Shown here: piece by piece, positions 3,247 through 51,400 of the stretch
How the letters are laid out: every line of letters begins with the position of its first letter
Numbering within the stretch: position 1 is the first letter of the stretch
From: Dictyostelium discoideum
Taxonomy: Eukaryota
Direction: 5' to 3'
DNA: 64,000 nucleotides
NCBI GenBank assembly: GCA_000004695.1
Contig: CM000155.2
Span: 1,920,001-1,984,000 of the forward strand
The notes under the pieces: model-generated
The model's database searches: none
Told to the model about the DNA's origin: nothing
What the model saw: the letters and a program-made list of their open reading frames with translations, nothing else
Translations under genes and position numbers: made by a program

Positions 3247-6739
<3,493 letters not shown>

Positions 6740-7197
6740 AATAAAATAATAAAAAAAAATATATATTGTTTTAACAACTATGAACCTTCATAAATAACAA
6801 AAAATTTCATAGAATTCATATCACTCAGATACTTATTTTTGAAACTTTTTTTTTTTTTTTAACTTTTACACGAGGCCAAGGTAGCTCTATATTCAACACC
6901 AATTTCTATTCATACAATATTTTAAACTATTGATTTTTATATTTTGTTCATTGTATTTATCAGTTTTATTTTTGTCACTACCCACAACCTTCTTAATTCC
7001 TTTTTTAATTTTTCTTTTTTTATTTAACAATTTTAAAATAATTTTTTTAAAATGATTACCATTTTCAATAGTTGTCCAAATTCATCTTGGTTTCAAACTA
7101 TAATTGAAACAATTTCATCTTGTATTTCCATGGTTAAAATCTAAAATTATATATCCTTTTTTTAATTGTATTCCTAATGTGGGAGTTCAACAGTAAG

Positions 7198-7209
7198 GAA
7201 TCGAACCAT
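7198..7209 (-). promoter_or_regulatory. External B box (exB) downstream of tRNA-Gly.
   Basis: The minus strand reads TGGTTCGATTCC, about 31-42 nt 3' of the tRNA end. It matches the Pol III B-box consensus GGTTCGANTCC. Dictyostelium tRNA genes are known to carry a duplicated external B box ~30-40 bp downstream. Confidence 0.5.
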
Positions 7210-7239
7210 TGCCCTTTTCAAGGGAGTGTGAAAAAATTG

Positions 7240-7310
7240 TGCGTATGCTGGGAATCGAACCCAGTTCGCATCCGTGGCAGGGATGCATCATACCACTAGA
7301 CCACATACGC
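7240..7310 (-). tRNA. tRNA-Gly (anticodon GCC).
   Basis: The minus strand reads GCGTATGTGGTCTAGTGGTATGATGCATCCCTGCCACGGATGCGAACTGGGTTCGATTCCCAGCATACGCA. It has a 7-bp acceptor stem, an anticodon loop CTGCCAC, a T arm CTGGG-TTCGATT-CCCAG and discriminator A. Confidence 0.85.
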
Positions 7311-7439
7311 TTTTTATGATTTTTAAATAAATTATCTAATATTTTTTTGTTAAAAAATGTATGCTAATAAACTTTGAATAGGTAACACTCACTTTTTATA
7401 ATTTTTAATTTCAATAAATTCTTATAATGGCTAGCATAT

Positions 7440-8824
7440 TTAATATTATATGAACTAACAAAATACTGATTTAAAATTGTAAATGATGATTTGGTAATAT
7501 CAGTTTTGCCCAGTTGTAATGATGTTTTACAAAATTTTAATAATTAAAGTTTATGTTAATAATCATGATATTTGCTTTTAAAATATTATTAATTGATGAT
7601 AATTCTAAATTAAGACAACACCACCTAATACTTGGTAGTACTGAACAATTCTTTTTATAAGCTGAGCGTGAATATTCCCATTCCTTTAAAAATAAATCAT
7701 TTCTTTTTAGTGACATGAATAAACGTAAATTAGATTATCATTAATGGATTCCATGTTTTTGGTAAATATTTTTTAATATTTATTTGGTATATATTTGAAT
7801 AGTTCTTCATATGTTAATTTATTATCTATTTTTAACATTATACCACCAATGGTTTTATGTAAATATCTTTCTATTTCAACTCTTAAACTAATTTCTTCTT
7901 CTTTATTATCATCCTCTTCATCTTCTTTTTCTTTTTCTTCTTTATCATTTTGAAAACCATTGTTATTATTTATTTTTGATAAAAGGGTTCTGAGGAATTC
8001 AACTGATCTATTTAAATTTTAATTTGCAGTCTTTTTAAAATTATCAATTGACATTAATTCATCAGGTAATACTTCGTCATTATATTTTGATAAATATAAT
8101 TCTAATAGTTTATATGATCGTGTCAAGACGATTAATTTTATAAACATTTTTTGAATATGATCCTCTTCATTTTGTTCCAATAATAATAATGATAATTCTG
8201 ATTGCTGATGTTCTTTTGGTTTTTGTTCTCCAAATAATTCTAAACATTTTAATAAAATTTCTAATCTATCTTGATTATTGAAATTTTCACGTTGTTTAAA
8301 TACCATTTTAATATAATATAATAGCTCATATTTAGTTTTGTAATTTATAGTAACTGCTAAATACTCTAATCTAATATTTTTATTTTGACGTTTTATAAAT
8401 TCTAAATTTTTATTTGATTGTTCTGGTTGTTCTTTTATTTTATGATTTATCATAAATACGGGATTAATGTAATACAATGTCTCTTGTTATCAAATAAATA
8501 TGGGATAGAATCAAATGAAAATTCATTATCCATTAAACTCATTGTATATGATTCAAAGTTTGTTGTTGTTGTAGTTGTTGTTTTTGTTGTATTATTATTT
8601 TTATTATTAATATTATTAAGAGTTTCAAGTAATAAATTGATAATTTCATAACCACCATTTTTATATGCAACTTTTATTATTTTTTTAATCTTTCAAAAAT
8701 TCAAAATTCCTTTTTTCAAGTACTAATTGCAATATCTCTTTATATAATTCAATGTTGATTGATCTTTGACATTTTAAGTCGTAGTTTAAACGATCTTTTG
8801 ATGTTATTTCTATTATTTGTGCTC

Positions 8825-8855
<31 letters not shown>

Positions 8856-9152
8856 GTTATTATTATTATTAGTATTATTAATTAAATATAGATTGAATAA
8901 TGACTTTAAATTAAATTTACTAATATGAACATATTCATTATTTTTTAATTTATATTTTAGTAATTGAAATTGATTATTTTTAATCATCCATTTTAAATCA
9001 TAAATATGTTTAAATTTTGTCCTATTCTCTTTACATGATATGGGTTTATAATTAATCCATTCATTATTTTCTATATGATCTAATATTTTGTAAAATAAAC
9101 ATTTATTGTGAATTACTTTCCAAAATAGTACTTCGTTATTATTGAAATCCAT
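7440..9152 (-). pseudogene. Decayed tandem paralog of the downstream gene 9551..12787. It has several internal deletions and keeps the promoter-proximal N-terminus and the C-terminal segments.
   Basis: 7440..7760 matches 9700..9990 at the nucleotide level. 7740..7990 matches 11190..11470. ORF 8019..8477 (KEQPEQSNKNLEFIKRQNK...LEILLKCLELFGEQKPKEHQQSEL) and ORF 8685..9152 (MDFNNNEVLFWKVIHNKCLFYKILDHIENNEW...) are about 85-90% identical to parts of the 1078-aa protein. About 1.3 kb of the middle is missing. An upstream promoter-like TGTGGGAAAAAAAG motif is also copied. Confidence 0.7.
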
Positions 9153-9379
9153 ATTATTATTATTATTATTATAAAAAATAATTGTGGGAAAAAAAGAAAA
9201 AAAAATTTAAAAAGTATATATTTTTTGTTAGCGAAATTTCATGTTCAACACTTTTTAAAAAATAGAATTAAATAAAATAAAATGTTGTTGAAAACAATGG
9301 TGTATATTTAAAAAAAAAAAATTTATTTTATTAAATTAAATTAAAATGATCCTGGTAATTATTCAATTTGAAATAATAT

Positions 9380-9475
9380 TCTTTACATCTGGATCGAACC
9401 GAGAGTCTTCTGATGACTAACTTGTTTAAAATGATCTGGAATAACCATTTGTATACTATATGATCCTGGTAATTT
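9380..9475 (-). other. Orphan Pol III B-box / tRNA-like fragment between the two paralogs, flanked by 13-bp direct repeats GATCCTGGTAATT.
   Basis: The minus strand contains a consensus B box GGTTCGATCC (plus 9391..9400) and a stem-loop AGTC-ATCAGAA-GACT resembling an anticodon arm. No complete cloverleaf could be folded. GATCCTGGTAATT occurs at 9349..9361 and 9462..9474. Confidence 0.3.
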
Positions 9476-9550
9476 TTAGTTTTTATTTTTCTTTTAATTC
9501 TATTTTGTACAAATAATATTTTCAAATAGTAATGAACCCATTTGATAATT

Positions 9551-12144
9551 TTAATTATTATTTTTTATATCATTGATAATAGGATCTAGTTGAATTATTA
9601 TTGAATTCCTATTTATTAAATAATCATTTTCATTATAATTTTTAATTTGATTCAATAAATTCTTATAAATGTGATCATATTTAAAACCACCCCAGGTATC
9701 AAAATACTGCTTTAAAATTGTAAATGATGATTTAATAATATCAGTTTTGCCCAATTGTAATGATGTTTTACAAAATCTTAGTATTTGAAGTGTATGTAAA
9801 CGATCATAATATTCGTGACTATAATTTTCTCCAATTACTTTTAAAATATTATTAATTGATGATAATTCTAAATTAAGACAACACCACCTAATGCTTGGTA
9901 GTACTGCACAATTTCTTTTATAAACTGAACATGAGTATTCCCATTCCTTTAAAAATAAATCATTTCTTTTTAGTGACATGAATAACTTTAAATTATTCAA
10001 ATAATCATCTTCATTTTTGACATAGAGACTTTCTTTATCTTTATATGGACGACTTATCATTGAATCCAATAAATCATTAAATGGTGATTGTTTAATGAAT
10101 CCTAATGTTATCGATTTAAGCAAACCATTATCATTATGAGATATTGATTCATAATAATCATACAATAATCTTGATCTTTTATAAATGAAAAATAATTTAA
10201 TTTCTTTTGTTTCCTTATTAATTTCTAATTGATTTTCAATTAAAAATTGATAAATTTGCTCAGTTAGTTCTTGATTTATATATCTTCTTTTATTAAAAAA
10301 TGCATGTACCAATATTTGATAATAAAATTGCAAATTTGCTTGATGGAAGGTAGTTGTAACTGTTATTACTGTTGATGGTGATGATGACGAACATTTTTGA
10401 AGATTATTACAATTTCTATTGATTTGATTATTTGTTTTAATTATTTCTTTTGATTTATTAAATTGGTTAATGAATAATATAATAAAAGATTCTGAAAATT
10501 TTTTATCTCTCCCGTCAAAATTATAATCTTTATCTTTAATTATAAAATTCTCTATTATGAATCTTGAATAATTACTATTGGATATTATATTTCCTTTTGT
10601 ACCCTCAAAGAAACCTCCAGCAGGTTGAGCATCTAAATTGGTGTTTATTTTAATTTTTGAAAGATTAAATTTCGCTTCAGGATTTAATGTGCTTGTATTA
10701 TTTCTATCACTATCATCTTCATAAAAACCATTTCTAGATATATATTCTACTAAATAATAATATTCTTCAGGAGTAACCATTTTATAATCAAAAATAAAAT
10801 TGAATAATCTATTATATTCTTGATAAATTGATTCATCTTCTTGATTTAATAATCTTTCATTTAAAGAATATGGTAAACGACGTAAATAGCAAAGTACAGA
10901 TTTAAATTGAATACCTAATGAATGAAAATATTTAATCTCTTGAATATTACATTTTATAATTGCTTTTAAAAATGGTATTCGATAATAATATTGTAAATCT
11001 TCAGTGATTGAATTTAACTCTATAAAGTGATTCGATAATTCAATAGAATCGAAATAGTAATCAATTTCAAATAACCTTAATTCTAATTTATTTAATGATG
11101 GTTCTCTCCATTCACATTGTATAACCCAATCCATTGTTTCAATATCTTTGATAATAGGGAGAGGATGATTATATCTATCGTGAAAGATTATCATTAATGG
11201 ATTCCATGTTTTTGGTAAATATTTTTTATATTTATTTGGTATATATTTGAATAGTTCTTCATATGTTAATTTATTATCTATTTTTAGCATTATACCACCA
11301 ATGGTTTCATGTAAATATTTTTCTATATCATCATCCTCTTCATCATCATCATCTTCATCATCATCTTCTTCTTCTTCTTCTTTTTCTTCTTCTTCATCTT
11401 TTTCTTTTTCTTCCTTTTCTTTTTCTTCTTTATCATTTTGAAAACCATTGATATTATTTATTTTTGATAAAAGGGTTCTAAGGAATTCAACTGATCTATT
11501 TAAATTTTCATTTGCGGTTGAGTAAATATAGAAAGAATAACGTTTTTGAGGATCGAAAGTGAAATCCATTTGTTTCAATATCGAAGGAATGTAATTTTTA
11601 AGACTATATTCAAATGCAAACTTTTTAAAATCATCAATTGACATTAATTCATCAGGTAATACTTCATCATGATATTTTGATAAATATAATTCTAATAGTT
11701 GATCTGATCGTGTTAAGATAATTAATTTTATAAGCATTTTTTGAATATGATCCTCTTCATTTTGTTCTAATAATAATAATAATTCTGATTGCTGATGTTC
11801 TTTTGGTTTTTGTTCTCCAAATAATTCTAAACATTTTAATAAAATTTCTAATCTATCTTGATTGTTAAAATTTTTACGTTCTTTAAATACCTTTTCAATA
11901 TAATCTAATAGCTTATATATAGTTTTGTAATTTATAGTAACTGCTAAATATTCAAATCTAATGTCTTTATTTTGATGTTTTATAAATTCTAAATTTTTAT
12001 TTGATTGATTTGGTTGTTCTTTTATTATATGATTTATCATAATACGGGTTAATGTAGTACGATGTCTCTTGTTACAATGTAGATATGGGATAGAATCAAA
12101 TGAAAATTCATTGTCCATTAAACGCATTGTATATGATTCAAAGT

Positions 12145-12201
<57 letters not shown>

Positions 12202-12426
12202 TTGTATTATTTTTATTATTAATATTACTTAAAGTTCCAAATAATAAATTGATAATTTCATAACTACCATTTTTATATGCAACTTCTATTATTATTTTAT
12301 CTTCCAAAAATTCACAATTCCTTTTTTCAAGTACTAGTTGCAATATCTCTTTATATAATTCAATGTTGATTGATCTTTGACATTTTAATCTATAATATTC
12401 TTTTGGTGAATCTATTATTTGTACTC

Positions 12427-12496
<70 letters not shown>

Positions 12497-12787
12497 GTTA
12501 TTATTATTATCAACTAAATATAGATTGAATAATGACTTTATATTAAATTTACTAATATGAACATATTCATTATTTTTTAATTTATATTTTAGTAATTGAA
12601 ATTGATTATTTTTAATCATCCATTTTAAATCATAAATATGTTTAAATTTTGTCCTATTCTCTTTACCTAATGATATGGGTTCATAATTAATCCATTCATT
12701 ATTTTCTATATGATCTAATATTTTGTAAAATAAATATTTATTGTGAATTACTTTCCAAAATAGTACTTCATTATTATTAATATCCAT
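9551..12787 (-). CDS. Hypothetical 1078-aa protein with poly-Asn, poly-Thr and an Asp/Glu-rich acidic stretch. No domain recognised. Parent of the upstream pseudogene.
   Basis: A single uninterrupted ORF begins with ATG (MDINNNEVLFWKVIHNKYLF...). Outside the homopolymer tracts the sequence has complex, non-repetitive composition. Confidence 0.7.
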
Positions 12788-13188
12788 ATTATTATTATTA
12801 TTATTATTATAATTAAAAAATAATGGTCGATTTTGTGGGAAAAAAAAAAAAGAAAAAAAAAAAGAAAAAAGTTGAAAAAAAAAAAGAAAAAAAAAAAGTA
12901 AAAAAAAAAGAAAAAAAAAAAAAGAAAGAAAAAAGTTGAAAAATAAACTAATAAAAGTAAAAACAAATAAACCGATTCAAACCAAATCAATTTTTTTGGT
13001 TTTTTTTTTTTTTTTTCAAATATTATTGGTATTTGTATGGTATTTGGGATTGTTGTGGTAAATATCTATTCAAGGAAAAATAAATAAAAGTTTTTTAAAT
13101 TTAAAAAAAATATAAAATTCAAAAAAACATTCACAAATTTTCCCGCCAAACCATTTTGCTGTTAAAAAAAAAAAATGGGAATCTGGAA

Positions 13189-13227
<39 letters not shown>

Positions 13228-13349
13228 TAAAAAAAAAAAAAAAATAGTGATATTTGTTATGACTTTACCCAATTCCTTAAAAATAAAAATAATAATAATA
13301 AAATAATAATAATAATAATAATAACAAACTCAATAAAAATAAAAAAAAA

Positions 13350-13488
13350 ATGTCATCATTGAGCGATTGGGAAAATACAAAAGAAAATATAGTTCCTCTT
13401 AAAACTGGTAGGGACCCAACTAAACTTGCATTATTTGCAAAACAAACAAATCAATCAGATGAAGAATTAGAAAAAGAAAAACAGTAAA

Positions 13489-13549
<61 letters not shown>

Positions 13550-14262
13550 TTATTTTTATTATAATTATTATTAACACAACTTTTTTTTTTTTTTTTTTTT
13601 TTTTCTTTAATAAAAGAAAATTTGAAATAATTATAAATGAATACCAAGGTGAAGATCCAATTGATAATTGGTTAAAATATATAAAATGGGTACAACAATC
13701 ATATCCAGGTGGTAATATGAAAGAACAATTAATTGTATTATTAGAGAGATGTACAAGATTATTTTTAAGTACAGAGAAATATAAAAATGATCCACGTTAT
13801 TTAAGAATTTGGATTACATATGCCGATATGTGTAGAGATCCAATTGAAGTATTCTCATTTTTAGAGGTACAACGTATAGGTTTCTATCTTTCATTACTCT
13901 ATGAAGCAAGAGCTATCGTCTATGAAAATAAAGGTAACTATGAACAAGCCGATAAATCATTCAAACAAGGTATAGAGAGAAAAGCTCAACCCATTGAAAG
14001 ATTACAACAAAAACATTTAGATTTCGAAAGAAGATTAATTGCAAGATTAAAACATCAACAACAACACCAACAACTTCAACAACAACAACAACAACAAAAT
14101 GATCAATTAGAACAACAACAACTTGATGAAAATGGTAATACAAAATTAACTAGATCTGCATTAGGTACAATTAGTTCATCTTCAGTTCATTCTGAAAGAA
14201 AATCTCAACAAACTAAAGGTTTACCATTAGGTAATTCTACAATTGGTAAGCTTTATTATTAC

Positions 14263-14334
<72 letters not shown>

Positions 14335-15497
14335 TATTATTATTATTATTATTATTATTTTAAAGATGAAAAATAAAAAAATAATATTAATATGATTTTA
14401 TTTAGATAAAAAGAGAAAAGTTGGAAATGATCAAAAAAATAATTTAGGATTTCAAATTTTTGATGATGAAAAAGGTGGTTCAACAACAAATGAAGTTTTA
14501 ACAGATTCTAAATTTTTTGGATCATCTCGTAAAGCAGCTGCTTTAATGGCTGCTGGTCAAACACAACAAACATCTCAAATGAAATGGGATGAATTAGAAC
14601 CTGAACTTAATAAACATAAAGAAAATACACAACTCTCTCAAAAATGGTCTGATGTAAAACTACTTCAAAAGAAACAAAAAATTACAACTGCTGGTTTTCA
14701 AATTTATTGTGATCAAGATTCTTTATCCAACAACAATAATGGTAGTAATAATAATAATAATAATAACAACAATGAGAATATACCATTATCACCTGATAAA
14801 TTAAGAGTTCATAGTTCAAAACAACAATCTAAATTAGAACAAATTCAAAATAATCCATTAGCAAACTTTCCAAAAGTATCAACATCAAACTCTTCTTCTT
14901 CTTCTTCTTCCTCTACCAATAAATCAACATCAACAACTACTGTTACCACTACTAAAAATGAAAGAGTTGGTTACAATAAACCATTATTTACAAAAGAGAA
15001 TGAAAAACATGAAATTTCATTTGAAGAATATAGAGCATCACTCTTTAAAAAGAAATTAATTGAAAAACAAGAACAACAAAATAAAAAAATTGAAAAAGAA
15101 AAAGAAGAATTAGATATTAAATTAAAACAAGAACAAAAAGAACAAAAAGAAAAAGAACAAAAAGAAAAAGAACAAAAAGAAAAAGAAGAATTAGAGATTA
15201 AATTAAAACAAGAGCAACAAGAAAAAGAATTACAATATCAGCAACATCAACAAAAACAATATCAACAAAAACAACAACAACAACAATCATATAATCCACC
15301 ATCTCCAACAATGACAATTCATACAAAACAAGCTTTTCATGATGTTATGGCAATGTTTAGTGAACCTTTAGAATTTGAAAAGAATAATAAATCAACATCA
15401 TCATCATCGTCATTGCAATTAAATAATGTTCCATCATCACCAAATCCTTTCACTGAAAGTACATTAATGAAATCAACAATCGATAATAATAAAAATG

Positions 15498-15537
<40 letters not shown>

Positions 15538-17563
15538 TAATAAAAATACTGATGTTTCATTTGATGAGAAATCAATTGAAGATCAAGAAAACATTGATCC
15601 AAATCAAGGTGGTGGTGGTGGTAATAATGATGGTAATCCTTTATTATCAAGTAAAATTACAAATCGTGATGTATTAATGAAACAATTATTCTCAAAGGAT
15701 GAAGATGAAGGAAACCAATTTGATCAAGAAAGAGATATGGTAAAAACAATTGAAAGAATTGATTTATTAGTAAAGGGTAAAGATACTCCAAAGTTTGAAA
15801 TTTTCGAAGATTCAACTTTAGCTTCAAGTCAATTACATTCAAAGAGTGTTAGTTTAGCTGATAAGGTTGCAAGTAAAAATAAACAATTAAATCCATTGGA
15901 ACAATCTCAAAATCCATTGAAAAAGTCAATATTAGGTAGTAGTGGTATCAATGGTATCAATGGTAATAATGGCGGTTTTACCATTTTCCAAGACCAACCA
16001 AACCAAGAGAAGAAACAACCATTACAACAATCACAATTACAAAATCCATTGAAAAACTCAATCTTAGGTATCAGTGATGCTAATGGTAATGGTGGTGGTG
16101 GTGGTAGTGGTAGTGGTAGTGGTGGTTTTACAATTTTCCAAGATCAAGCAGCTGAAGAAAAAAAACCATTTAATGAGAAAGAACAACAACAACAAGAAGA
16201 AAAAGAAAAAGAAAATAAAATAGAAGAAGAAGAAGAAGAAGAAGAAAAAGATAAAGAAAAAGAAATTAATTATCAAAATATTACAGGTAATATTACAAGT
16301 ACAATTGATCCAACCACAGTAATTATTTGTAGTTTAACACCAGATGATGGTATTGTTAATCCATATTTAATTGATCACCAATATTTATTGGAACAACACG
16401 TATCAGCTACAGTTCAATCAATTCAATCATTTTTTAATGTTGGAGATGATTTGGCACCACTACCAGAACAATTGGACCAATGTGAACCAAATCAACTTTT
16501 TGAGGATAATAGTATTATTGTTCAATGGCCATTCTCTGATATCACAGTAAACTTTACCAAATGTGTTTGTAAATCAACTATGGATGGTAGTATGACATTT
16601 AAAGTGGAAAGAATCGATGATCTAGCTATGACCACCTCTGAAGACAGTTGGTTGTCTTGTAAGGTTCAAGATCCACCCTCAATTTGGGAATTTTATATTG
16701 GAAATCAAATCCATCAACGTTTACAAGAGAGATCATTGACAATTAGTAACTCTAAATTCCCAACCATCCATTCCCTCTACTATTATACCGATAAATCCAT
16801 AATGTTAATGGATCATACTATAGATCAGGGTACTTTGGACGACGTGGTTTCAAGCACCAATGGCGTACCAATGGAAGAACCATTGGCAATGTTCCATTGT
16901 ATAGAATTGTTGAAAATGATTGAAGATTTACATTTGGTTGGTATCATTCATGGTAATATTTGTGCAAATAATTTACACTTTTTATTCGGACAAACCTCTG
17001 ATTGGCCTGATTGGACAGCAGGTGAATGTAAAGGTGCTTGGAAGAGTAAAGGTTTCACATTAACCGATTTCAGTAGATCAATCGATACAACAATCTATAG
17101 TCAAGACGCCAGATATCAATCACCAATTGAACTCTTACCAATTGGTACACCATTAGAATGGTTAAAAATCAATCAATCATCAACAACCAACGTTGGTTGG
17201 TCTTATAATTTAGATTATTTAGGTATTTGTAAAGTTATGTTTCATATTTTAACATGTGGTAAAGAAGAATTAAAATTATCATTGTCTCAACAAACTGGAA
17301 AATTAGAAATTATAAATCAATCAATAATTCAAAAAGATTCATTTTCTGAACTTGATACCTTATGGTTACCATTTTTAACCACATTGTTAAATCATAATGG
17401 TGAAAATGGTAATCAACAAACAACAACAACAACATATATATTAAAACAACAAAGAAATCTTTTTGAAAACTATTTACAATCAAATCCAGTTAAATCAAAA
17501 ATTAAATCTTTATTAAGAATTCAAAATATTAAATTATTTGAATCAATGAAATCAAAACAATAA
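13350..17563 (+). CDS. Mad3/BubR1/Bub1-family (MadBub) spindle-checkpoint protein. It has an N-terminal KEN box, a TPR-like Mad3/Bub1 homology region, a KEN-ABBA cassette and a C-terminal kinase-like domain. Exons are 13350..13483, 13617..14245 and 14406..17563.
   Basis: Exon 1 ([23 protein letters not shown]) matches BubR1 KEN box 1 (WELSKENVQPLRQGR). Exon 2 ([50 protein letters not shown]...[10 protein letters not shown]) matches the BubR1/Bub1 N-terminal TPR domain. The C-terminus ([18 protein letters not shown]...LTDFSRSID...[18 protein letters not shown]) aligns with the Bub1 kinase catalytic and activation loops. The donor at 13484 and acceptor at 13616 give split codon CA|A. The donor G|GTAAGC at 14246 and acceptor TTTAG|AT at 14405 give split codon G|AT. 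Confidence 0.8.
14256..14362 (+). repeat. Intronic (TAT)n microsatellite, about 35 units, in intron 2 of the MadBub gene. A (TTA)~20 run lies in intron 1 at 13490..13551.
   Basis: Read directly from the sequence. The ORF-track poly-Tyr tail of ORF 13717..14376 is read-through of this intron. Confidence 0.85.
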
Positions 17564-28216: not shown

Positions 28217-28288
28217 TAGCTTCTCTAGGTTTCGATCCTAGGACCTCGAGGTTATGGGCCTCGCACTCTACCCCTGAGTTAAGAAGCT
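28217..28288 (-). tRNA. Initiator tRNA-Met (anticodon CAT).
   Basis: The minus strand reads AGCTTCTTAACTCAGGGGTAGAGTGCGAGGCCCATAACCTCGAGGTCCTAGGATCGAAACCTAGAGAAGCTA. It has an A1:U72 end pair, three G:C pairs closing the anticodon stem, anticodon loop CCCATAA, and a T loop AUCGAAA (A54/A60). These are the eukaryotic initiator signatures. Confidence 0.85.
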
Positions 28289-39494: not shown

Positions 39495-42400
39495 TTAGTT
39501 TGTAACACCAAAATTTAAATCATATCTACTTGAAGCTATCATTGGATCTAAAATAAGAATATTTGAAATTGTTGCTTTTCCATTAACCATTGTTGCAGCG
39601 TTATAAGGAATAGATGAAGTTGGTAGAGGTGATGGAATAATTGAAAGTGTAACTGAATCAGCTGTAATAATATATTGTTGATTTTGGTATGGTGGATTAA
39701 TGAATTTAAATAGACCTAATGAATCGGTTGATTGTTTTTGAATTAAGGTACCATTGGCAAATAATAAACTAACGGCAACACCTTGTTTACCTTGCTCCCA
39801 TGGTTCTTGAATACCATTACCATTTGTATCAATAAAGACAATACTACCAAGGGTAATTGGTTTTGGAGAACAGTGGGCTACAAGTTGACCAAGACCCGAT
39901 GCTTTGCCAAAGGTAACTGGATTGACTGTATCTGAATTATCAGTGAGATAAACTTGGAATGAAGAACGAAGGGTACCATTGTTATTGTTATAAAATTTGA
40001 CTACACCTTCGAATACAGTTGTAGCATCGAATGAAGCTGATGCAACCTCTGGGAAACCTGGAACTTGGAAAACTGAAAGACCACCAGTATCATCATGACC
40101 AATTTGACCTTTTCTAAAGTTATCATTATAGAATTCACCAGTACCTGGACCTTCAATTTGACCTTTATAACCTGATGGACCTGTATGAGAACCAATAGCA
40201 CCACCACATTTACCATCTCTTTCTGGGACATAAACTCCATTGACCAAACAAATACGTAAAATATCTGGTGCCGATACGAAACTACCTTGATCACCTTCTC
40301 TATCTCTGATACCGATAACCATATCATTACCATCGAATGTAATTGATGCAACGACTGGTTGTGGATTGTCATCGATATCAATCCATGGTTGCCATGTACT
40401 GTTACGACAGACTGTATTTGAATCAAAATTCTTACAACCTCTGCTATAATTTAATGGTAGAGTGACAACCTTTGTGAAGACTTGAGTGACTGGATCAAAA
40501 GAGTGAATGATTGCATTCATATCTGGGATGGTTGGACCACCACAAACTGAACCTGTATAATATTTACCTTGATGGAAGTTGATTGCAAATGGTTGCCAGA
40601 AATATTTGTCTTGGGTTCTTGTACAACCAAATGGAACCGTAAATCTTTGAGTGTTTGTTTTATTTGGCTGAGTATCCAATGGCATTATAATAATATCACG
40701 GGTTTGTAAACCAACTACTGCCAAACTACGAGTGTATGGATTAATAACAATACCACCAAATGCTGTACGATAAATCTCTGAAATTCTAAAATCTGTATCT
40801 AAACTAATGTCCATACCTAAAATATCATCAGTACCTTCTGTATCTTTTTCAAGGAAAGAATCAATTCTAGTGTATAGTGAATTTCTACCGGTTACAGTAT
40901 CGATCTTATAGATTGCATTAAGACGTCCAGGGCCATAATCTGTACCAAACTTGGTGAATGCTGAGGCGTAAAGTTGTTTCTTACTACGATCATAGGCTAG
41001 ACCATAGGTTGTACCTGATTCATAATAGAAGGATAGTGGAGTGATTTGATTATGTTGAGTAGAATTGTATGGGAACATAACGATAACTGGTTCACCAGTG
41101 TTTGGACCATTTTCATCACTATTACCAATGACATAACAACCTACTGAAAGATTTGGTACATCATTACATGTTTCTTCATTGGTGATGAAAGAGAAATCTG
41201 CAAATCCTGCTGGAACGGTGTAGGTGTTTGGAAGAATTACTGAAGTTGGTCTACATGTTTCAACCTTATCGCCTGAACCAGTTGGAAGTGCTGGCGTACC
41301 TACTGTAATCAAATAATTACCATCTTGTACAAGATTAAAGAATGAATATGAACCGGTTGAATCTGTAAGAGTGGAGTTGAAAGGAGTCTTACTATCGGCA
41401 TAGTAAATATAAACTGGAATCTTTGAAAGTGGTATATCTTTAGCTGTACCAAATTGACCACTGATATCGTATTTACCGTTACAATTGTAATCTTTGAAAA
41501 CTCTACCAGTGACATTCTTAAGACTTGGTCTAATTACACCAAGATTAACTGGTTTACATTTATATTGAGAGAATGGACAAACTATATTATCATCATCATT
41601 TGCATCCAATGTAAACATTGTAGAATTAAAGGTACCCAATAATAAAGAGTTTGTTGGTGAGCCAGTTACATTGAATTTAGTTGTTAGCCAACCAGATCCT
41701 GATGGAGGAATCAAGGTGAGTGTATAATTACCAAGTTGAAGGTTTGGAATTGAGAAACTACCATTGGCTGCCACTGGTGAGGTTGCAACAACAGTACCAA
41801 TTGGAACTGTAGTTAAACCACCATTAACGGCTTGATTGGCAGATTTCAATTGAACAGTAAAGTTACCTGGTGGAACTGAACCCATTTCAAAGAGACCATC
41901 TTGTAAAACATCATTCCAAACGTAACCAAATACACCCATTGTAGTGAAAACAAAACCTGCATCATGAGTAGGGTCAAGGTATGGTGCTGTATATAAATTT
42001 GATTCATTATCAAATCTTGAACGAATATCGGATGATGTAATAATAAGATTAAATGCATCAGTTCTACCATTAGGGAATGCATTGTTTTCTACTTGATTTG
42101 ATGTTGACACTAATTTGGTTGGAGTGATTGAATAACCGGCTGGTATGACAAATTGAACGATATAATAACCTAAACGTACATTATCAATGTAATAGTAACC
42201 TTGAGAGTTTGATACTGCTTTCAATGGGTTACCATCTGAACCCATAACTGGTTGACCATTGTTATTTAAGAGAAGTACAGTAACATTTGGTAATGGTTTT
42301 TCATCAATATCAAAGATACCATTCTTGTTGGTATCAATAAAGGTTCTAACACCCAATGCAACATATGGGGTATTTATACCAACATTGGCTTTGTTGTACG

Positions 42401-45400
42401 CTTGTCTACAACGACTAACACTTGATACAGTTACTACATCTGGTCCTGGCATTGTGAATATTGGTGTTGTACGATTTAATGGGAAGAATCTATTGTTGAC
42501 TAAACCAGTAGTGGTGAAATTTGAAATGATATAACGAGGTGGAATTGAAACTGTCATATAGTAGGAACCTGGTGGAACGTTTGGAATTGAATATTTACCA
42601 TTTACATCTGTGACTGCCATTTGAATTGGTTTGCCGAAAATATCATTTGGAGTGGAACCATCTGCATTAAAGAGTGTAAGGTTTACATATGGGAAACCAA
42701 TTTCATTGATATCAAAGATACCATTGAGATTACCATCGGACCATGATTGTTGACCAATACTGTAACATGGGATTACAATACCTGCATCATTGTTTAGATT
42801 TTTCCAAGTATTTGATCCATAGGTTGTATCCAATGTAAAGTTATTCAAAACAATTACTTGACCGTTTGCTGTGGCTCTTGACATACCACCTGTCAAAATT
42901 GGTGAATAAGTAGTACCTGCAATATATTTGGTACTATTGGCAGGTATAGTTAATCTTACTACATAGGAAGGTCCACTTGATACATTTTGGAATAAATATT
43001 TACCATTGGCAGTTGTTACTTGACTTGAAATTGGTTTACCTAAAATATCCAATGCTGGTGAAAGATCTGAAGATACTAATAATTCAACTTTAATACCATC
43101 TGCACCAACTTCACCATTGTCTAATAGTGAATTATTATTTGAATCAATCCAAATAGTATCACCTAAATATATTTTTTTTTTTCATCAAATTATATTAAAA
43201 AAACAAATTATTAATAAAAATAAAAATTTTAATAAAAATAAAATTATATTTAAAAAAAATTTAATACTTTACCAATAATAAATGATTGTGGAACATAACC
43301 AACATTGAATGTATAATTCTTATTGAAAGCCTTGAGATTATCTGATGGAACTGTACGTAATGTATTATTATAAATTTCAATATCTAAACATAATGTATTA
43401 TTACCTTTTAAGAAATTATCTGGACCTGATATACCAAGTTGATAGGTTGGATTTGGTGGTATGAAAGTTAAACAATCGTTACCAGTTTCTAAATTATCAA
43501 AAATGTAGAAACCATTGGCATCAGTTTGTTTGGTCTTTGAACCAATTGAGATTGTAACATTTGCAATACCTGGTTCATCTACATCTTTCTTACCATTGTT
43601 GTTAATATCTAAGAATACAAATCTACCAATTGCTATCTTGGGTGGAACAATACCAAAGTCTTGATAGATATTGATATAGTTTGCTTTAAGATTCCAAGTT
43701 GAATCAATTAGCATAAGTGCTTTATCATTTTGACTGAGATCAATACTGATGTAACCAGTTGCATTTGCCTTGTTATCTTGAAGAGTATTATTGGAGATTG
43801 TAAAACCAACTGGTGGAGTAATTGCTAAATTGTAAACTCCTGGGTATAAATTATCGAAAATGTAGATACCACTTGGATTTGTTACGGTAGATGTTATAAA
43901 GTTAAAGTTACTATCATAAATTCTAACAGTAATACCTTCAACTGCAGGTTCATATGATTCAGCTCCACCATTACCATTCTTATCTACCCAAATATATGTT
44001 CCAACTGCATATTTGTATGGGGCTAAACCAAAATTAACAGTGGCATCTTGATAGGTATCTTCAGTATGACTTGGAATTGAGAATCTTTGAACGGTTGGAC
44101 TGAATACAGAGACATTGGTACAAGCAATAGCATTAGAATCACCTCTATTAAATGTTGTTGGAGTTAAGAGAGTTGGATAAAATTCTTTTGGTACAGTGAG
44201 TGAAACGCAATAATTTCCTGGAGCTAAATGGGTAAAGATGTATGTTCCATTGGCATCTGTTGTTGTTGTTGCAATGGTTTGTGATAGGTTAGAACCACTT
44301 CTTAAGAAAACTGTAATATTTGCCATACCCATTTCACTTGGTTGCATTTGACCATCTTTATTGTCATCATTGAAAACAATGAAACCAATACTCAAATATT
44401 CTGTGGTGAAACCAGCATCAATATTTCTATTAATATAATAAGTTGGTACTTTATCTGATGCAATCGATGCTGTAACATCTGGACTATTGATTCTAAGAGA
44501 AACTGATACACGTCCTCTACTGTTTACTTTAGATTGATCTGTTATTGGACTTGGTTTCAATTGTTTTGGATAACCAAATTGTACAACATAATCTCCTTGT
44601 TCAACATTAACGAAATGATAGATACCTTGTGAATCAGTGGTTGTGGTCATGAGAGTTGTATTGAATAAATTCAAAAGTCTAACGGTAATATTAACCAATG
44701 GAGTATCTTGGGCACTATCAAATAGACCATTTCCATTAACATCACGGAATACAAAGTCACCAATTGAAAAGATTGGTGGAATTAAACCACCATTAATATC
44801 ATTTCTACAAATTGGATCACCATAATTAATAGTGAAACAACTTAAACCTTGAGGGTTGAATACAGAGTCATTGGTTATCTTTGTCATTATATAGTTATCG
44901 ATAATGGATAAACTTACACAATAATTTCCAACAACTAAATTATCGAATCTATAATTTCCATTTACATCAGTTGTTGTAGTTTGAGTTGGTAAAGCGGTGT
45001 TATTTGGAGTAAGAGTAATGGTTAAGTTTCTATATGGTTCTTCGGTTGGTTCTGGATGACCATTACCGTTAATATCAATCCAAACATATTTACCAACACA
45101 ATAAAGTGGAACTAAACCGAGGTTTGCGTCATTTTTATTTCCAGATAGCGTGAAACAATATTGTTGTGTGTTTGAATCACCACCAATTGGTGAGAATGGT
45201 GAATCATTTGATTTTGTAACTGCTTTGAAATTTTGTGGAACTGATGCAGTTAAACAATAATTACCGGCTAATAATTGACCAAAACTATATTTACCTTGTG
45301 AGTTTGTTGTTGTTGTTTTTATTTCTGAGTTTCCAGTGTTAACAAGAGAAAGAGAAACATTTGCTTGAAGTGGATCATCTAAATCTTTAATACCATTATT

Positions 45401-48400
45401 AAGTTTATCAATCCAAACATTATCACCTAATGTATAGAATGGAGTTAAACCTACATTGACATTAGTTAAATTGGTAGCATTAACATTGAAACAATATGTT
45501 GTTACATTTTTAGAGGTTGATAAAATAAATGGAGAGTCTAAAGATGTATTTACAAATTTGTAAAGTGCAGAATTAATTGGACCTGCGCTCATACAATAGT
45601 TACCTGGTGCAACATCAACAAATTGGTAGAATCCATTTGCGTTTGTAATGGTTGAATTGATTTGTTTTCCTTGTGAATCTAAAAGTGTCATGGTAATGTT
45701 TGGAACACCAGCCGATGTTGGTAAACGTTTACCAGTATTTAATGGATCTAACCAAGCTGTATCACCAACAGTCAAAAGTGGAGTGAGACCAAGGTTGGCA
45801 TTAGTAATTGATGATGTTGTAAGGTCGAAACAATAGATTGTACTCTTGTTAAATGGTGAATCTTGAGATTGAATAACTTGTTGATAGTGTGGTGGAATAA
45901 TCATCTTGATACAATATGATCCTGGTACTTGATCTTTAAATGCGTACTTACCGTTTTCATCTGTAATTGTGTTGGCAATGGAAGTTCCATTTGGTGAGAA
46001 CAATGAAACTGAAACACCTGGTAATAATGGTTCATCTAATTCTTTAATACCATTATTATTCTTTTCGATCCAAACATATTGACCAATATCAAGTGTTGAT
46101 ACGAAACCTGGATTAACATTAGTGTTGTTATATGGTATATGACCATTTAATCTAACACAATACTGACCATTAATGAATGGAGAATCTTTGCTACCTGTTA
46201 CTGGAATTGTACCTAATGGAGTTGTTGCATTGAGACAATATTTACCCATTAATAATGGATAGAACATGTAGTTACCATTAATATCTGTTTTGGTTGTTTC
46301 TATAACATTTCCTAGTGGGTCAATAAGTGATAATTCTACATCGGAAAGGAATTCATTATCTTGTCTCTTTCCATCGTTATTAATATCTAACCAAGCAATA
46401 TAACCAACTCCAAATATAGTATCCAAACCAAGGTTAACATCTGACATATCACCAAATAATGGGAAACAAAAACCACCTGTAGAGTTGGTAACTGAATCAT
46501 CAGAGTCGACAACAACAATATATCCTGGTGGAACTTCAAATTGAACACAATAGTCTGCACTTGGTAATAAATTAGGTACAACATAGCCACCTTTATCATC
46601 AGATCTTGTAGCAGCTAAAATGTTTCCACTTACCTTGTCATATAATTGTACTGTTACATTTGGAAGAAGTAGATCACTAGATGAAAGGAATTTTGATAAA
46701 TCTAAATCGACCCATGTTGTACCATCGACCACAAGGTATGGAATCAAACCAATATTGGCATTCAATACATTAGAATCTGTGACTGCGAAACAATATTGAA
46801 GTTCTGCTAATGGATTAGTTGGAGATGTATCAGTGAAGTTTTTGAATGGCGATACTTCAGAATATGAATCTGCTAAATAATTGGATGGTACTGTAGCTCT
46901 TACGCAATAACTACCTGGTTGTATATCATTGAATTGATATTTACCAGAAGAGTTGGTAATAGTTGTTTCAATTAAATTACCATTGTTATCATAGAGAGAC
47001 ATTGTTACATTTGGTACCAATAATGAATCATTTCTACGAACTCCATTATTTAAATTATCTAACCATGCATCAGAACCAATATTATAAAGTGGAATTAAAC
47101 CTAAATTGGCATTTGTAATTGATTTATCAAGTAAATCGAAACAATATTTGACATCTGAATCGAATGGAGAGTCTTTTGATTGTGCAACTTGTTCATAGTG
47201 TGGTGGAATAACCATTTGTACACAATATGATCCTGGTACTTGATCTTTTAATGCATATTTACCATTTTCATCTGTTACAAGATTGGCAATTGATGTTCCA
47301 TTTGGTGAGAAAATATGAATTTGTATGCCTGGTAATAATGGTTCATCTGATTCTTCTTTACCATTGTTATTCTTATCGATCCAAACATATTGACCAATAT
47401 CGAGTGTTGGTACAAAACCTGGATTGACATCAGTTCTATCAATTGGTTGTGGTCCTGTGAATGTTAAACAATATTTATTATTGACAAAGAGATTATCTGA
47501 ACTACCAGTAACTGGAATTGAACCTATTGGAGTTGTTGCAATGATACAATAATCACCTTGTGGAAGGTTATCAAATTTGTAATTACCTGATTCATTGGTT
47601 GTTGTAGTTTGTAATACTTTACCATTTGAATCTTGTAATGATAACTCTACACCTGGTAAGAACTCATTGTCTTCTTTATTACCATTATTATTCTTATCTA
47701 ACCATGATACTGATCCGATACTATTGAGTGGAGAAATACCAATATTGATATTTGGATTTGATTGTGTTAATAAGAAACAATATTTACCTGTTGTTTGGTC
47801 AACAACTGAGTCTTTTGATGGTTGTACGAAATGATATTTAATTGGAGTTGTTGTTTCAATACAATAATTGCCTGGTAATAAATGGTCAAAGTGGTAGTTT
47901 CCATTTGAATCTGTTTGTGTAGTAGATGATTGACCTGATCCAGTATTGGTAAGTTTAATTTGGAATTCTGATTTACCAACATCAACTGGTTTATCGTAGA
48001 CATTGTTATTATTTGAATCAATCCAAACAATAGTTCCAATTTTAAGTAATGGAATTAAACCAAGATCTTGATTATCTGTTGGTCCACTAACTGTGAAACA
48101 TGATTCAACATCTGATTGGGAAGATAATGAAAATGGTGAGTCTGAAGATTTGTTAACTGGGGAATAATCCGAAGGAACAGATACTTTGATACAATAATCG
48201 CCTGGCTCAACATCATCGAATTGATATTTACCAATATCGTCAGTTGGAATTGATTTAATAATTGTATTTCCATTTTTATCAGTAAGTGTTAATACAATAT
48301 TTGGAATACCTGGGGAATTTTCTAATTGAATACCAGTGTTGAATGAATCTAACCAAACAGTATCACCAATTGGATAAAGTGGAATTAAACCAAGATTGGC

Positions 48401-51400
48401 GTTTGCAATTGATTTATCTACTAAATCGAAACAATATTTGACATCTGAATCGAATGGTGAATCTTCTGATTGTGCAACTTGTTTATAATGATCTGGAATA
48501 ACCATTTGTACACAATATGGTCCTGGTACTTGATCTTTTAATGCGTATTTACCATTTTCATCTGTTACAAGATCTGCGATCTTAGTTCCATTTGGTGATG
48601 TGATAATAACTTGAACACCTGGTAATAATGGTTCATCTGGTTCTTCTTTACCATTGTTATTCTTATCGATCCAAACATATTGACCAATATCGAGTGTTGA
48701 TACAAAACCTGGATTGACATCAGTTCTATCGATTGGTTGTGGTCCTGTGAATGTTAAACAATATTTATTATTGACAAATAGATTATCTGGACTGCTTGTT
48801 ACTGGAATTGAACCGATTGGAGTTGTTGCGACGATACAATAATCACCTGGTAATAAATTATCAAATTTGTAATTACCTGATTCATCAGTTGTTGTTGTAT
48901 CTAATACTTTGCCACTTGGATCTTGTAATGATAACTCTACACCTGGTAAGAATTCATTATCTTCTTTCTTACCATTATTATTTTTATCTAACCATGATAC
49001 TGATCCGATACTATTGAGTGGTACTAAACCGATATTGATATTTGGATTTGATTGTGTTAATTTGAAACAATATTCACCTGTTGAGTCGACAACTGAATCA
49101 TCTGAAGTTACAACAAATTGGTATTGATCTGGTTGTGTTACTTTGATACAATAATCACCTGCTAATAAATGATTGAAATTATAGTTACCATCAACATCTG
49201 TTTGAATTGTTGATGTTTCACCATTACCACTGTTGGTTAATGTAATTGATACATCTGATTTACCGATATCACTTGGTTGTTCAAACTTATCATTGTTATT
49301 TGAATCAATCCAAACAATGGTACCGATTTCATAGAATGGTGATAAACCTAAGTTTTGATTATCTAATGGTCCTGAAACTTTGAAGCATGATTTAACAATT
49401 GATTCATTCGAAGTTGGAGAGAATGGTGAATCTGATGATGTATTGACTGCTTGATAGGTATCACTTGGAAATTCTGCTTCAATACAATAATCACCTGGTG
49501 GAACATCTTCGAATTGATATTTACCATCTGGTCCTGAAGTTGTTGATTGAATAACTTTATCATCTTTATCGACTAAATTTAATTCAATACCTTCGACACC
49601 TGGTGAATCATCAGTACGTTTACCAGTATTGAACGGATCTAACCAAACACTATCACCAATTGGATAAAGTGGAATTAAACCAAGATTGGCGTTTGTAATT
49701 GATGTATCTACTAAATCGAAACAATATTTGACATCTGAATCGAATGGTGAATCTTCTGATTGTGCAACTTGTTTATAATGATCTGGAATAATCATTTGTA
49801 CACAATATGATCCTGGTACTTGATCTTTTAATGCATATTTACCATTTTCATCTGTTACAAGATTGGCAATTGATGTTCCATTTGGTGATGTGATAATAAC
49901 TTGAACACCTGTTAATAATGGTTCATCTGATTCTTCTTTACCATTGTTATTCTTATCGATCCAAACATATTGACCAATATCGAGTGTTGATACAAAACCT
50001 GGATTGACATCAGTTCTATCGATTGGTTGTGGTCCTGTGAATGTTAAACAATATTTATTATCGACAAAGAGATTGTCTGGACTACCAGTAACTGGAATTG
50101 AACCGATTGGAGTTGTTCCGACGATACAATAATCACCTGGTAATAAATTATCAAATTTGTAATTACCTGATTCATCAGTTGTTGTTGTTGTATCTAATAC
50201 TTTACCATTTGAATCTTGTAATGATAATTCTACACCTGGTAAGAATTCATTGTTTTCTCTCTTACCATTATTATTCTTATCTAACCATGATACTGATCCG
50301 ATACTATTGAGTGGTACTAAACCGATATTGATATTTGGATTTGATTGTGTTAATTTGAAACAATATTCACCTGTTGAGTCGACAACTGAATCATCTGAAG
50401 TTACAACAAATTGATATTTATTTGGTTCTGTTGCTTTGATACAATAATCACCTGCTAATAAATGATTGAAATTGTATTCCCCATCAGCATCTGTTTGAAT
50501 TGTTGATGTTTCACCATTACCACTGTTGGTTAATGTAATTGATACATCTGATTTTTTAATATCACTTGGTTGTTCAAACTTATCATTGTTATTTGAATCA
50601 ATCCAAACAAATGTACCGATTTCATAGAATGGAGTAACACCAATTGGTGGTTTGACATCATGATCAGTGATTGTGAAACAATATTTAACTGTGACGAAAC
50701 TATCATTTGTTGAATCAGCCGAGAATGGTGAATCTGATGATGTATTGACTGGTTTGTATTGATCTTTTGGAATATCAGCTTCAACACAATAATCACCTGG
50801 TGGAACATCTTCGAATTGATATTTACCATCTGGTCCTGATTTGGTGTTTGTAATTTCATTTCCATCTTTATCAGTTAATCTAATTGTAATGTCTGATAAT
50901 GGTGGTGAATCATCAGTTTGTTTACCAGTATTGAATGGATCTAACCAAACTTTATCACCAACGTTGAATAATGGAATTAAACCAAGATTGGCATTTGTAA
51001 TTGATTTATCTACCAAATCGAAACAATATTTGACATCTGAATCGAATGGTGAGTCTTCTGATTGTGCATCTTGTTTATAATGTGGTGGAATAACCATTTG
51101 TACACAATATGATCCTGGTACTTGATCTTTTAATGCATAATTACCATTTTCATCTGTTACAAGATCTGCGATCTTAGTTCCATTTGGTGATGTGATAATA
51201 ACTTGAACACCTGGTAATAATGGTTCATCTGGTTCTTCTTTACCATTGTTATTCTTATCGATCCAAACATATTGACCAATATCGAGTGTTGATACAAAAC
51301 CTGGATTGACATCATATCTATCGATTGGTTGTGGTCCTGTGAATGTTAAACAATATTTATTATTGACAAATAGATTGTCTGGACTACCAGTAACAGGGAT

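Follow-up and report, generated by a model that had tools for sequence, protein, structure and literature searches.

A decayed tandem duplicate beside its intact parent gene in Dictyostelium discoideum

A stretch of 64,000 nucleotides of Dictyostelium discoideum DNA (contig CM000155.2, positions 1,920,001 to 1,984,000; hereafter the window, in which position 1 is the first letter) contains a gene remnant at 7396..9172, referred to as copy A, next to an intact gene at 9551..12787, referred to as copy B. The analysis supports the conclusion that the remnant is a tandem duplicate of its neighbour that has been disabled by internal deletions, frameshifts and stops. Judged from its sequence it is to be classed as an unprocessed tandem-duplicate pseudogene, which is in itself an ordinary phenomenon. 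We consider it very probable that the tandem duplication is old, that copy A decayed independently in each of two lineages and that gene conversion took place between the copies. In the following, wA and wB denote the window copies A and B, and cA and cB their counterparts at locus L002 of D. cf. discoideum. All genes, spacers and lesions for which window positions are given lie on the minus strand.

The extent of the homology was established by BLASTN of 6800..9550 against 9300..13400, by TBLASTN and by tabulation of the lesions. BLASTN returned three collinear blocks on the same strand with identities of 82-89%: 7396..7732 corresponds to 9633..9995 in the parent (82.4%, E 8e-82), 7732..8027 to 11185..11515 (85.5%, E 6e-88) and 8025..9172 to 11615..12807 (89.2%, E 0). 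The intact protein could be placed by TBLASTN on the remnant as aa 1-163, 164-249, 250-395, 430-534 and 931-1045 in shifting frames. The same-orientation tandem duplication proposed in a first-pass annotation of this DNA was thereby confirmed, with limits that were wider than the 7440..9152 given there and an identity somewhat below the 85-90% estimated. At the 5' side of the remnant only about 20 bp of flank could be aligned contiguously (12788-12807 with 9153-9172), and farther upstream the matches were patchy, A-rich and contracted; the repetition of the 5' flank noted earlier thus holds as a contiguous match for the former part only. At the 3' side the remnant lacks codons 1046-1078 (the last 33) together with the stop codon and 3' flank. 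The remnant is thus truncated near the tRNA gene described below, and the 3' end that had been thought to be retained is missing.

The tRNA gene, a tRNA-Gly(GCC) identified with ARAGORN at 7239..7310 and found at the same position in loci L001 and L002, lies 86 bp beyond the remnant; the first-pass annotation had placed a tRNA-Gly gene immediately past this end. The spacer between the two (7311..7395, 85 bp) has 20 bp beside the tRNA gene that are conserved in L002, and for the other 65 bp no match was found in the comparison with L002. Inspection of this spacer for TRE-, DGLT-A- or Skipper-type sequence revealed nothing retroelement-like. That the 3' truncation was brought about by insertion of a tRNA-targeted retrotransposon was considered and rejected, there being no retroelement sequence between remnant and tRNA gene. 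The spacer between the copies (9173..9550) forms the 3' flank of copy B. It cannot be recognised as belonging to the repeat, nor is it conserved in L002, whose inter-copy spacer measures about 1.7 kb. Its comparison with the flanks of either copy gave nothing beyond low-complexity matches.

About 1.4 kb is missing from the remnant: deletions of 1190, 102 and 22 bp and microsatellite contractions of 30, 27 and 36 bp. The earlier estimate of about 1.3 kb lost in at least three places was therefore right as to several deletions and slightly low as to the total. The 1190-bp deletion shifts the frame, removes parental 9996..11185 (codons 535-930) and has its junction at 7732..7733 with 1 nt of microhomology; the segment is present in both L002 copies. 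The 102-bp deletion is in frame, removes parental 11516..11617 (codons 391-425) and has its junction at 8025..8027 with 3-4 nt of microhomology (TGCA/CGCA); this segment is present in wB, cB and cA. In the C-terminal block several lesions lie close together at 7544..7575: the 22-bp deletion at about 7575 (codon 984; microhomology 0-1 nt) and two TAA stops, one in codon 997 (7556..7558) and one in codon 1001 (7544..7546). The third stop in the parental frame results from a GAA>TAA change in parental codon 427 (8019..8021). Beside the two large deletions there are six smaller frameshifting indels, with further frameshifts of +1, +2, +1 and -4. Altogether 8 of the 16 indels between remnant and intact copy, the 1190-bp deletion included, are not multiples of 3. 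Because the sister-species copies, used as outgroup, have every segment that is missing here, the differences are due to loss from the remnant; insertion into the intact gene does not account for them. Multiple internal deletions with stops and frameshifts, as the first-pass annotation had described them, were thus verified, and the breakpoint alignment it had suggested yielded the 0-4 nt of microhomology at the 1190-, 102- and 22-bp junctions, which is indistinguishable from chance in sequence of 80% A+T. End joining or slippage may have produced the deletions. The first open frame of the remnant (8685..9152, 155 aa) has kept its ATG, corresponds to parental aa 1-163 and ends at the +1 frameshift near 8688. 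Comparison of the remnant with the other copies gave a pN/pS of 0.65-0.85, not above that of the intact pair (0.92 overall). Since the parent itself evolves at about 0.9, this ratio does not discriminate a pseudogene from a gene.

Copy B is a single intronless open reading frame of 1078 codons, according to the list of open frames, and its protein contains poly-Asn, poly-Thr and acidic tracts. Its exact product is annotated in the sister assembly GCA_054883475.1 and its D. cf. discoideum ortholog is intact (1068 aa). A search of the protein, together with its neighbours, against Pfam returned for the family no family at threshold, only low-complexity noise, and no Ank match above the gathering threshold; two paralogs gave a sub-threshold Ank_2 hit (16 bits vs a cut-off of 27.3). 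The AlphaFold2 model, computed from a 4-sequence alignment, was all-helical with a mean pLDDT of 39 and a pTM of 0.28. Because of this pLDDT the model is unusable and fold-search matches are meaningless. A literature search on DDB_G0292668, 0292670, 0292672 and 0292674 found nothing. The parent is a Dictyostelium-specific gene of an uncharacterised family. Compared with the ortholog its dN/dS is 0.92, and the pN/pS of the intact gene reaches 1.2-1.85 in codons 125-534; the parent gene is nearly unconstrained at the amino-acid level, that is, its protein evolution is near-neutral. All 15 indels between copy B and the ortholog are multiples of 3, which contrasts clearly with the figures for the remnant. 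Of random substitutions in the intact ORF about 7.1% would give rise to a stop, whereas the roughly 363 codon differences between wB and cB include no stop in either gene. The reading frame is clearly maintained in copy B only. The family thus combines near-neutral protein evolution with 1000-codon frames that have stayed open, a combination that usually reflects conflict-driven or diversifying evolution.

In D. cf. discoideum the syntenic locus L002 carries intact copy B, then copy A, then the tRNA-Gly gene, followed by the same downstream neighbours. L002 4484-7770 aligns with window 12897-9569, and L002 9404-9883 matches window 12914-12413 with 88.7% identity. The 5' flank of copy B at 12788..12914 belongs to the duplicated unit, as it matches about 100 bp upstream of both L002 copies. 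The first-pass annotation had proposed that other species be checked for an intact duplicate, and here copy A proved to be broken as well: cA keeps aa 7-93, 350-440 and 491-1058 in three frames, so that codons 94-349 are lost and the centre is kept, and its lesions are entirely different from those of wA. The union of wA and cA covers nearly the whole gene, which implies that the ancestral copy A was full length. As the deletions in the two differ, the copies must have decayed independently in each lineage. The dS of neighbouring genes between the two genomes is about 0.1. On this comparison of sequences the duplication is taken to be older than the split between D. discoideum and D. cf. discoideum and not recent. 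The remnant had been called a snapshot of pseudogenisation following head-to-tail duplication; it is most probably a pseudogene, but not a fresh one, the duplication being placed before the species split. Word-indexed protein searches gave few matches, in a collection that lacks most proteins of the new Dictyostelium assemblies; there the search with the neighbour-gene protein for further syntenic loci found one D. citrinum protein only (34% identity), and the D. citrinum locus L003 is not syntenic and has no member of the copy B family.

In the sequence of events that we favour, a DNA-level head-to-tail duplication of about 3.4 kb, comprising the whole intronless coding sequence and at least 100 bp of 5' flank, would have taken place before the two species diverged. 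The downstream copy A, beside the tRNA-Gly gene, would then have lost its function and decayed separately in each lineage. In the D. discoideum lineage codons 535-930 and 391-425, the 22 bp and the last 33 codons would have been lost and the frameshifts and the three stops acquired, and in the sister species codons 94-349 would have been lost instead. Episodes of conversion between the adjacent copies would have kept some stretches of A and B closer to each other in the same genome than to their counterparts in the other.

The main competitor of this history is that two independent and more recent duplications took place at the same position, one in each lineage. Over most of the length the copies in one genome resemble each other more than they do those of the other genome, which alone would suggest separate duplications: cA and cB are 94-98% identical at aa 565-715, where wB and cB are 88-92% identical, and wA and wB are 92-97% identical at aa 320-465, where wB and cB reach 82-90%. 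Moreover, 21 of the informative sites, mainly in codons 360-534, group the copies by genome. However, the two genomes agree in the order and orientation of the copies, in the 5'-flank boundary and in the adjacency to tRNA-Gly, and at 15 sites the two A copies group together, as do the two B copies. Seven of the 15 lie within 45 codons (994-1038) and include the shared multi-base motif TCATATAAT; under independent duplication such sites would need parallel changes, and the third, noise pattern accounts for only 6 sites. A post-hoc Fisher test on the site patterns gave p=0.011. Such a mosaic agrees with an ancestral duplication and subsequent gene conversion, and separate duplications are considered unlikely. 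Part of the 82-89% similarity then probably reflects later gene conversion and not the age of the duplication. One could go further and regard the broken tandem copies as conversion donors that diversify the fast-evolving intact gene, with transfer possible in either direction; this would resemble pseudogene-templated diversification or the recombination-driven turnover of the Dictyostelium tgr loci, and we hold it to be improbable. Compatible with such a donor role are the mosaic sites and the fact that two loci of the family have arrays of an intact gene plus a patchwork copy.

That the remnant could be a functional shorter gene, encoding a spliced protein of 381 aa, the 95-aa DDB_G0292670 or a 155-aa N-terminal-domain protein, is suggested by the presence of models in two annotations and by features that the remnant has kept, namely its ATG, the 155-aa N-terminal ORF and some 20 bp of 5' flank. 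An N-terminal ORF of 149 aa exists in the sister species too, and a family search yielded many short proteins consisting of the N-terminal domain only. Yet the 95-aa ORF at 8019..8306, which is identical to the AX4 model DDB_G0292670 (XP_629562.1, UniProt Q54CV8, 'hypothetical protein'), begins with an internal Met and terminates at the substitution-derived stop in codon 427. The 381-aa spliced model belongs to the annotation of GCA_054883475.1, and because the parent is intronless an 'intron' bridging a frameshift would remove parental coding sequence. Besides, the N-terminal pN/pS is 0.82 between the A copies vs 0.43 between the B copies, both from small counts, and the lesions differ completely between the lineages. 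A functional short gene is accordingly thought improbable; to judge by sequence DDB_G0292670 is probably spurious and the reference models in the remnant are probably artefacts. Along with the 381-, 149- and 621-aa models of newer assemblies, the 95-aa model most likely represents pseudogene fragments and is worth flagging. Less credible still is a processed (retrotransposed) pseudogene that landed beside its parent, perhaps by means of tRNA-targeting retroelement machinery. In Dictyostelium, retrotransposons target tRNA genes, a Ty3-like gag pair lies in the interval of L002 equivalent to 7311..7395, upstream of the same tRNA gene, and in view of the intronless parent the absence of introns is no argument against this origin. 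Against it stand the copied 5' flank, of which cA has about 100 bp and wA 20 bp or more, the head-to-tail position adjoining the parent, the absence of a poly(A) tract at the end of the homology in cA (in wA the 3' end is deleted) and the same tandem pattern, with no tRNA gene in the picture, at the paralogous locus L004. The possibility that the similarity is an assembly artefact or low complexity only might be raised by the base composition of the region (about 80% A+T) and its many trinucleotide tracts. It is practically negligible: the blocks survived hard-masking of low-complexity sequence and still scored as much as 499 bits, none of 20 shuffles exceeded 36 bits, an independent long-read assembly had an identical structure with 0 differences across 4136..12787, and the homologous two-copy structure recurred in a third genome. 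Similarity confined to low-complexity repeats, which the first-pass annotation had named as the finding that would speak against it, was thus not encountered.

As in the psi-globins and the Xenopus 5S rRNA pseudogene, a tandem copy made at the DNA level has kept its 5' flank and gene order, carries frameshifts, stops and deletions and shows evidence of sequence exchange with a functional neighbour. The remnant differs from these in that its parent is an orphan with a dN/dS of about 0.9, that large internal deletions dominate over point lesions and have produced a patchwork, and that one ancestral copy has decayed by two routes in sister lineages. With a single ancestral duplicate that underwent different large deletions in two sister lineages and probably exchanged sequence with its intact neighbour, the locus should be useful for work on deletion bias and gene conversion where the genome is extremely A+T-rich. 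The tgr clusters of Dictyostelium comprise 38 genes and 26 pseudogenes in AX4 and are subject to turnover and local recombination (PMC12745789). They resemble the present family as lineage-specific, fast-evolving tandem arrays in which pseudogenes are numerous and the copies show signs of having recombined locally. However, there is no sequence relationship, neither a signal peptide nor Ig-like (TIG) domains were detected (no Pfam match), the array described here has two copies only and no evidence ties the family to allorecognition.

Closer to copies A and B is locus L004, where members of the same family (40-44% aa identity) are arranged head-to-tail (ACTFIW_011975, its 1158-aa neighbour, and ACTFIW_011973 plus a 103-aa model). 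It also contains an internally deleted copy, without aa 556-835, and a patchwork remnant that is split into several models and retains aa 4-28, 573-917 and 966-1062 in three frames; it differs in having three tandem copies vs two and in that no tRNA gene was noted. The internally deleted copy has an open frame of 813 aa, conserved in D. cf. discoideum at a length of 783 aa (P0002), and it may still be functional.

When 6800..9550 was compared by BLASTN with 9300..13400, the remnant (wA, 7396..9172, minus strand) was aligned with the intact gene (wB, 9551..12787, minus strand, 1078 codons) as three same-strand blocks in collinear order: 7396..7732 with 9633..9995 at 82.4% identity, 7732..8027 with 11185..11515 at 85.5% and 8025..9172 with 11615..12807 at 89.2%. 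Both copies are carried by the minus strand, the intact gene upstream and the remnant downstream, and are therefore arranged head-to-tail. This bears out the same-orientation tandem copy described in the first-pass annotation. After hard-masking of low-complexity sequence the blocks were still present, with bit scores of up to 499, whereas the best of 20 shuffles reached 36. This indicates that the similarity is not an effect of low complexity, in spite of the A+T content of the window (~78-80%) and its coding tracts of poly-Asn and poly-Gln. In TBLASTN the 1078-aa product was recovered from the remnant as aa 1-163, 164-249, 250-395, 430-534 and 931-1045 in changing frames; the 64-kb window contains no third copy of the gene. 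The matching locus in another assembly (JBTAPE010000034.1, GCA_054883475.1), which like the other comparison assemblies most probably originates from a ten-genome study (PMC12745789), is 99.55% identical across 22.8 kb and shows no differences between 4136 and 12787. The window itself probably belongs to the AX4/AX2 lineage of D. discoideum.

Alignment of the remnant with its parent revealed, in the direction of translation, frameshifts by insertion of 1 bp at ~8688 (parental codon 163) and 2 bp at ~8460 (codon 248), an in-frame deletion of 102 bp at 8025-8027 (codons 391-425), a GAA to TAA stop at 8019..8021 (codon 427), a further 1-bp insertion with frameshift at ~7776 (codon 520), frameshifting deletions of 1190 bp at 7732/7733 (codons 535-930) and 22 bp at ~7575 (codon 984), TAA stops at 7556..7558 (codon 997) and 7544..7546 (codon 1001), and a frameshifting 4-bp deletion at ~7412 (codon 1046). 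In addition, poly-Asn, poly-Thr and acidic trinucleotide tracts are shorter in the remnant by 30, 27 and 36 bp. Pseudogenisation by internal deletions, stops and frameshifts had thus been recognized essentially correctly. The proposed breakpoint mapping placed the deletions, with junction microhomologies of 1 nt (1190-bp deletion), 3-4 nt (102-bp) and 0-1 nt (22-bp), which fit end joining or slippage and are uninformative in DNA this A+T-rich. The 3' end of the gene, believed to be retained in the copy, is not: past 7396 homology is wholly gone, so that the copy has neither the final 33 codons nor the stop. The tRNA-Gly(GCC) gene reported beyond this end is present at 7239..7310 on the minus strand, 86 bp past the final homologous base, and the copy is truncated near this conserved gene.

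Two gene models lie inside the remnant. A 95-aa ORF at 8019..8306 on the minus strand is identical to DDB_G0292670 of D. discoideum AX4 (XP_629562.1, Q54CV8), which starts at an internal Met and ends at the stop in parental codon 427, and in GCA_054883475.1 a 381-aa spliced product is annotated that bridges the remnant frameshifts. As the parent gene has no introns and the lesions in the sister lineage are wholly different, both models are most likely spurious calls within a pseudogene.

The top database relative, a D. cf. discoideum protein (P0001), gave access to a locus (L002) that is syntenic with the window downstream, where the neighbour gene, the GHMP-kinase-like and CH-domain genes and tRNA-Gly(GCC) are all shared. 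It holds an intact ortholog of the parent (cB, 1068 aa, single frame, 86% nucleotide identity) and, ~1.7 kb downstream, a second copy (cA) that keeps aa 7-93, 350-440 and 491-1058 spread over three frames; two gene models, of 149 and 621 aa, are annotated on it. The duplicate that the first-pass annotation proposed to look for in other species thus exists, but it is not intact. The pair is present in both genomes and its second member is broken differently in each: aa 94-349 survive in wA, which has lost the centre, whereas in cA the centre survives and aa 94-349 are gone. Because every segment missing from wA occurs in cA and cB, the gaps are deletions from an ancestral second copy that was essentially full length. 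The stretch of ~100 bp preceding cA matches the 5' flank of wB, which implies that the duplicated unit took in promoter-proximal DNA; cA/cB homology ends near the stop codon. Between cA and tRNA-Gly (15039..15110 of L002) lie two Ty3-like gag ORFs in inverted arrangement (12818..14476; 287 and 220 aa, N-termini nearly identical, zf-CCHC), which are not in the window and look like the remnant of a tRNA-associated LTR retroelement. When L002 1..4483 is compared with window 12900..17563, synteny breaks directly upstream of the intact copy. The upstream 4.5 kb of L002, which carry ORFs of 491 aa (Gln-rich) and 301 aa, match nothing in the 64-kb window; their place is taken there by a Bub1-like gene, and a lineage-specific rearrangement breakpoint therefore adjoins the duplicated gene.

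In a four-way alignment, paralogs within a genome were often closer than orthologs. The informative sites numbered 15 for wA with cA and wB with cB, 21 for grouping by genome and 6 for the third topology. Sites grouping A with A are concentrated in codons 994-1038, where both A copies have the motif TCATATAAT and both B copies T(G/C)GG(G/A)TG(G/A)T, and by-genome sites prevail in codons 360-534 (post-hoc Fisher test, p=0.011). Independent duplications in the two lineages would require clustered parallel changes. The mosaic, together with the identical position and orientation of the copies, is best explained by a single ancestral duplication predating the split of both genomes, after which tracts of sequence were converted between the neighbouring copies A and B. 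Of the snapshot of pseudogenisation originally envisaged the decay stands, but not its recent age: the duplication is old, its apparent age probably blurred by gene conversion, and the second copy is undergoing independent decay in two lineages. The locus is a well-resolved yet ordinary instance of a known process.

No Pfam domain was detected in the parent gene, and phmmer, run exhaustively against 1.84 billion representatives, yielded just 31 relatives, many of them short pieces of the conserved N-terminal region (~100 aa); all those looked up were from Dictyostelium. Two paralogs gave sub-threshold Ank_2 matches, and the AlphaFold model of the protein is helical and unreliable (pLDDT 39). 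Between wB and cB, dS was 0.135 and dN/dS 0.92, compared with 0.08-0.11 and 0.05-0.38 for neighbouring genes of the same two species. In codons 125-534 (window 9551..12787 versus L002 4575..7781) pN/pS was 1.2-1.85, and some constraint was seen only in the N-terminal 100 codons (0.43 for B-B, 0.82 for A-A). Indels were multiples of three in 15/15 cases for wB/cB, 8/16 for remnant/parent and 17/22 for cA/cB. Since ~7% of random substitutions create a stop, ~26 stops would be estimated among the ~363 codon differences between wB and cB under neutrality, and none was observed; together with the in-frame indels this shows that the parent is clearly maintained. High dN/dS with a maintained frame marks the family as fast-evolving yet functional. 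These values, the in-frame indels and the lack of stops suggest an orphan family whose evolution is rapid and may be diversifying.

A paralogous array in another D. discoideum assembly (L004 10001..18464) contains three head-to-tail family copies: one of 813 aa without aa 556-835 and with an open frame, one full-length copy of 1158 aa, and one patchwork copy, in which aa 4-28, 573-917 and 966-1062 are spread over three frames and small genes of 325 and 103 aa are annotated. As the pattern is repeated there, tandem duplication with subsequent patchwork decay is recurrent in the family.

Elsewhere in the window, the Bub1-like checkpoint kinase gene (13717..17563, plus strand) begins with a Mad3_BUB1_I domain (13717..14376), after which comes an ORF of 1005 aa; the gene is interrupted by one or more introns and has long homopolymeric codon tracts. 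A second tRNA gene, tRNA-Met(CAT), is located at 28217..28288 on the minus strand. A giant gene at 39495..63526 (minus strand), with ORFs of 6758 aa (43250..63526) and 1185 aa (39495..43052) and more than 60 repeats of the SdrD_B / CarboxypepD_reg / SpaA type, looks like one for a colossin-like protein, and explains the plateau of 32% G+C from 40 to 64 kb.
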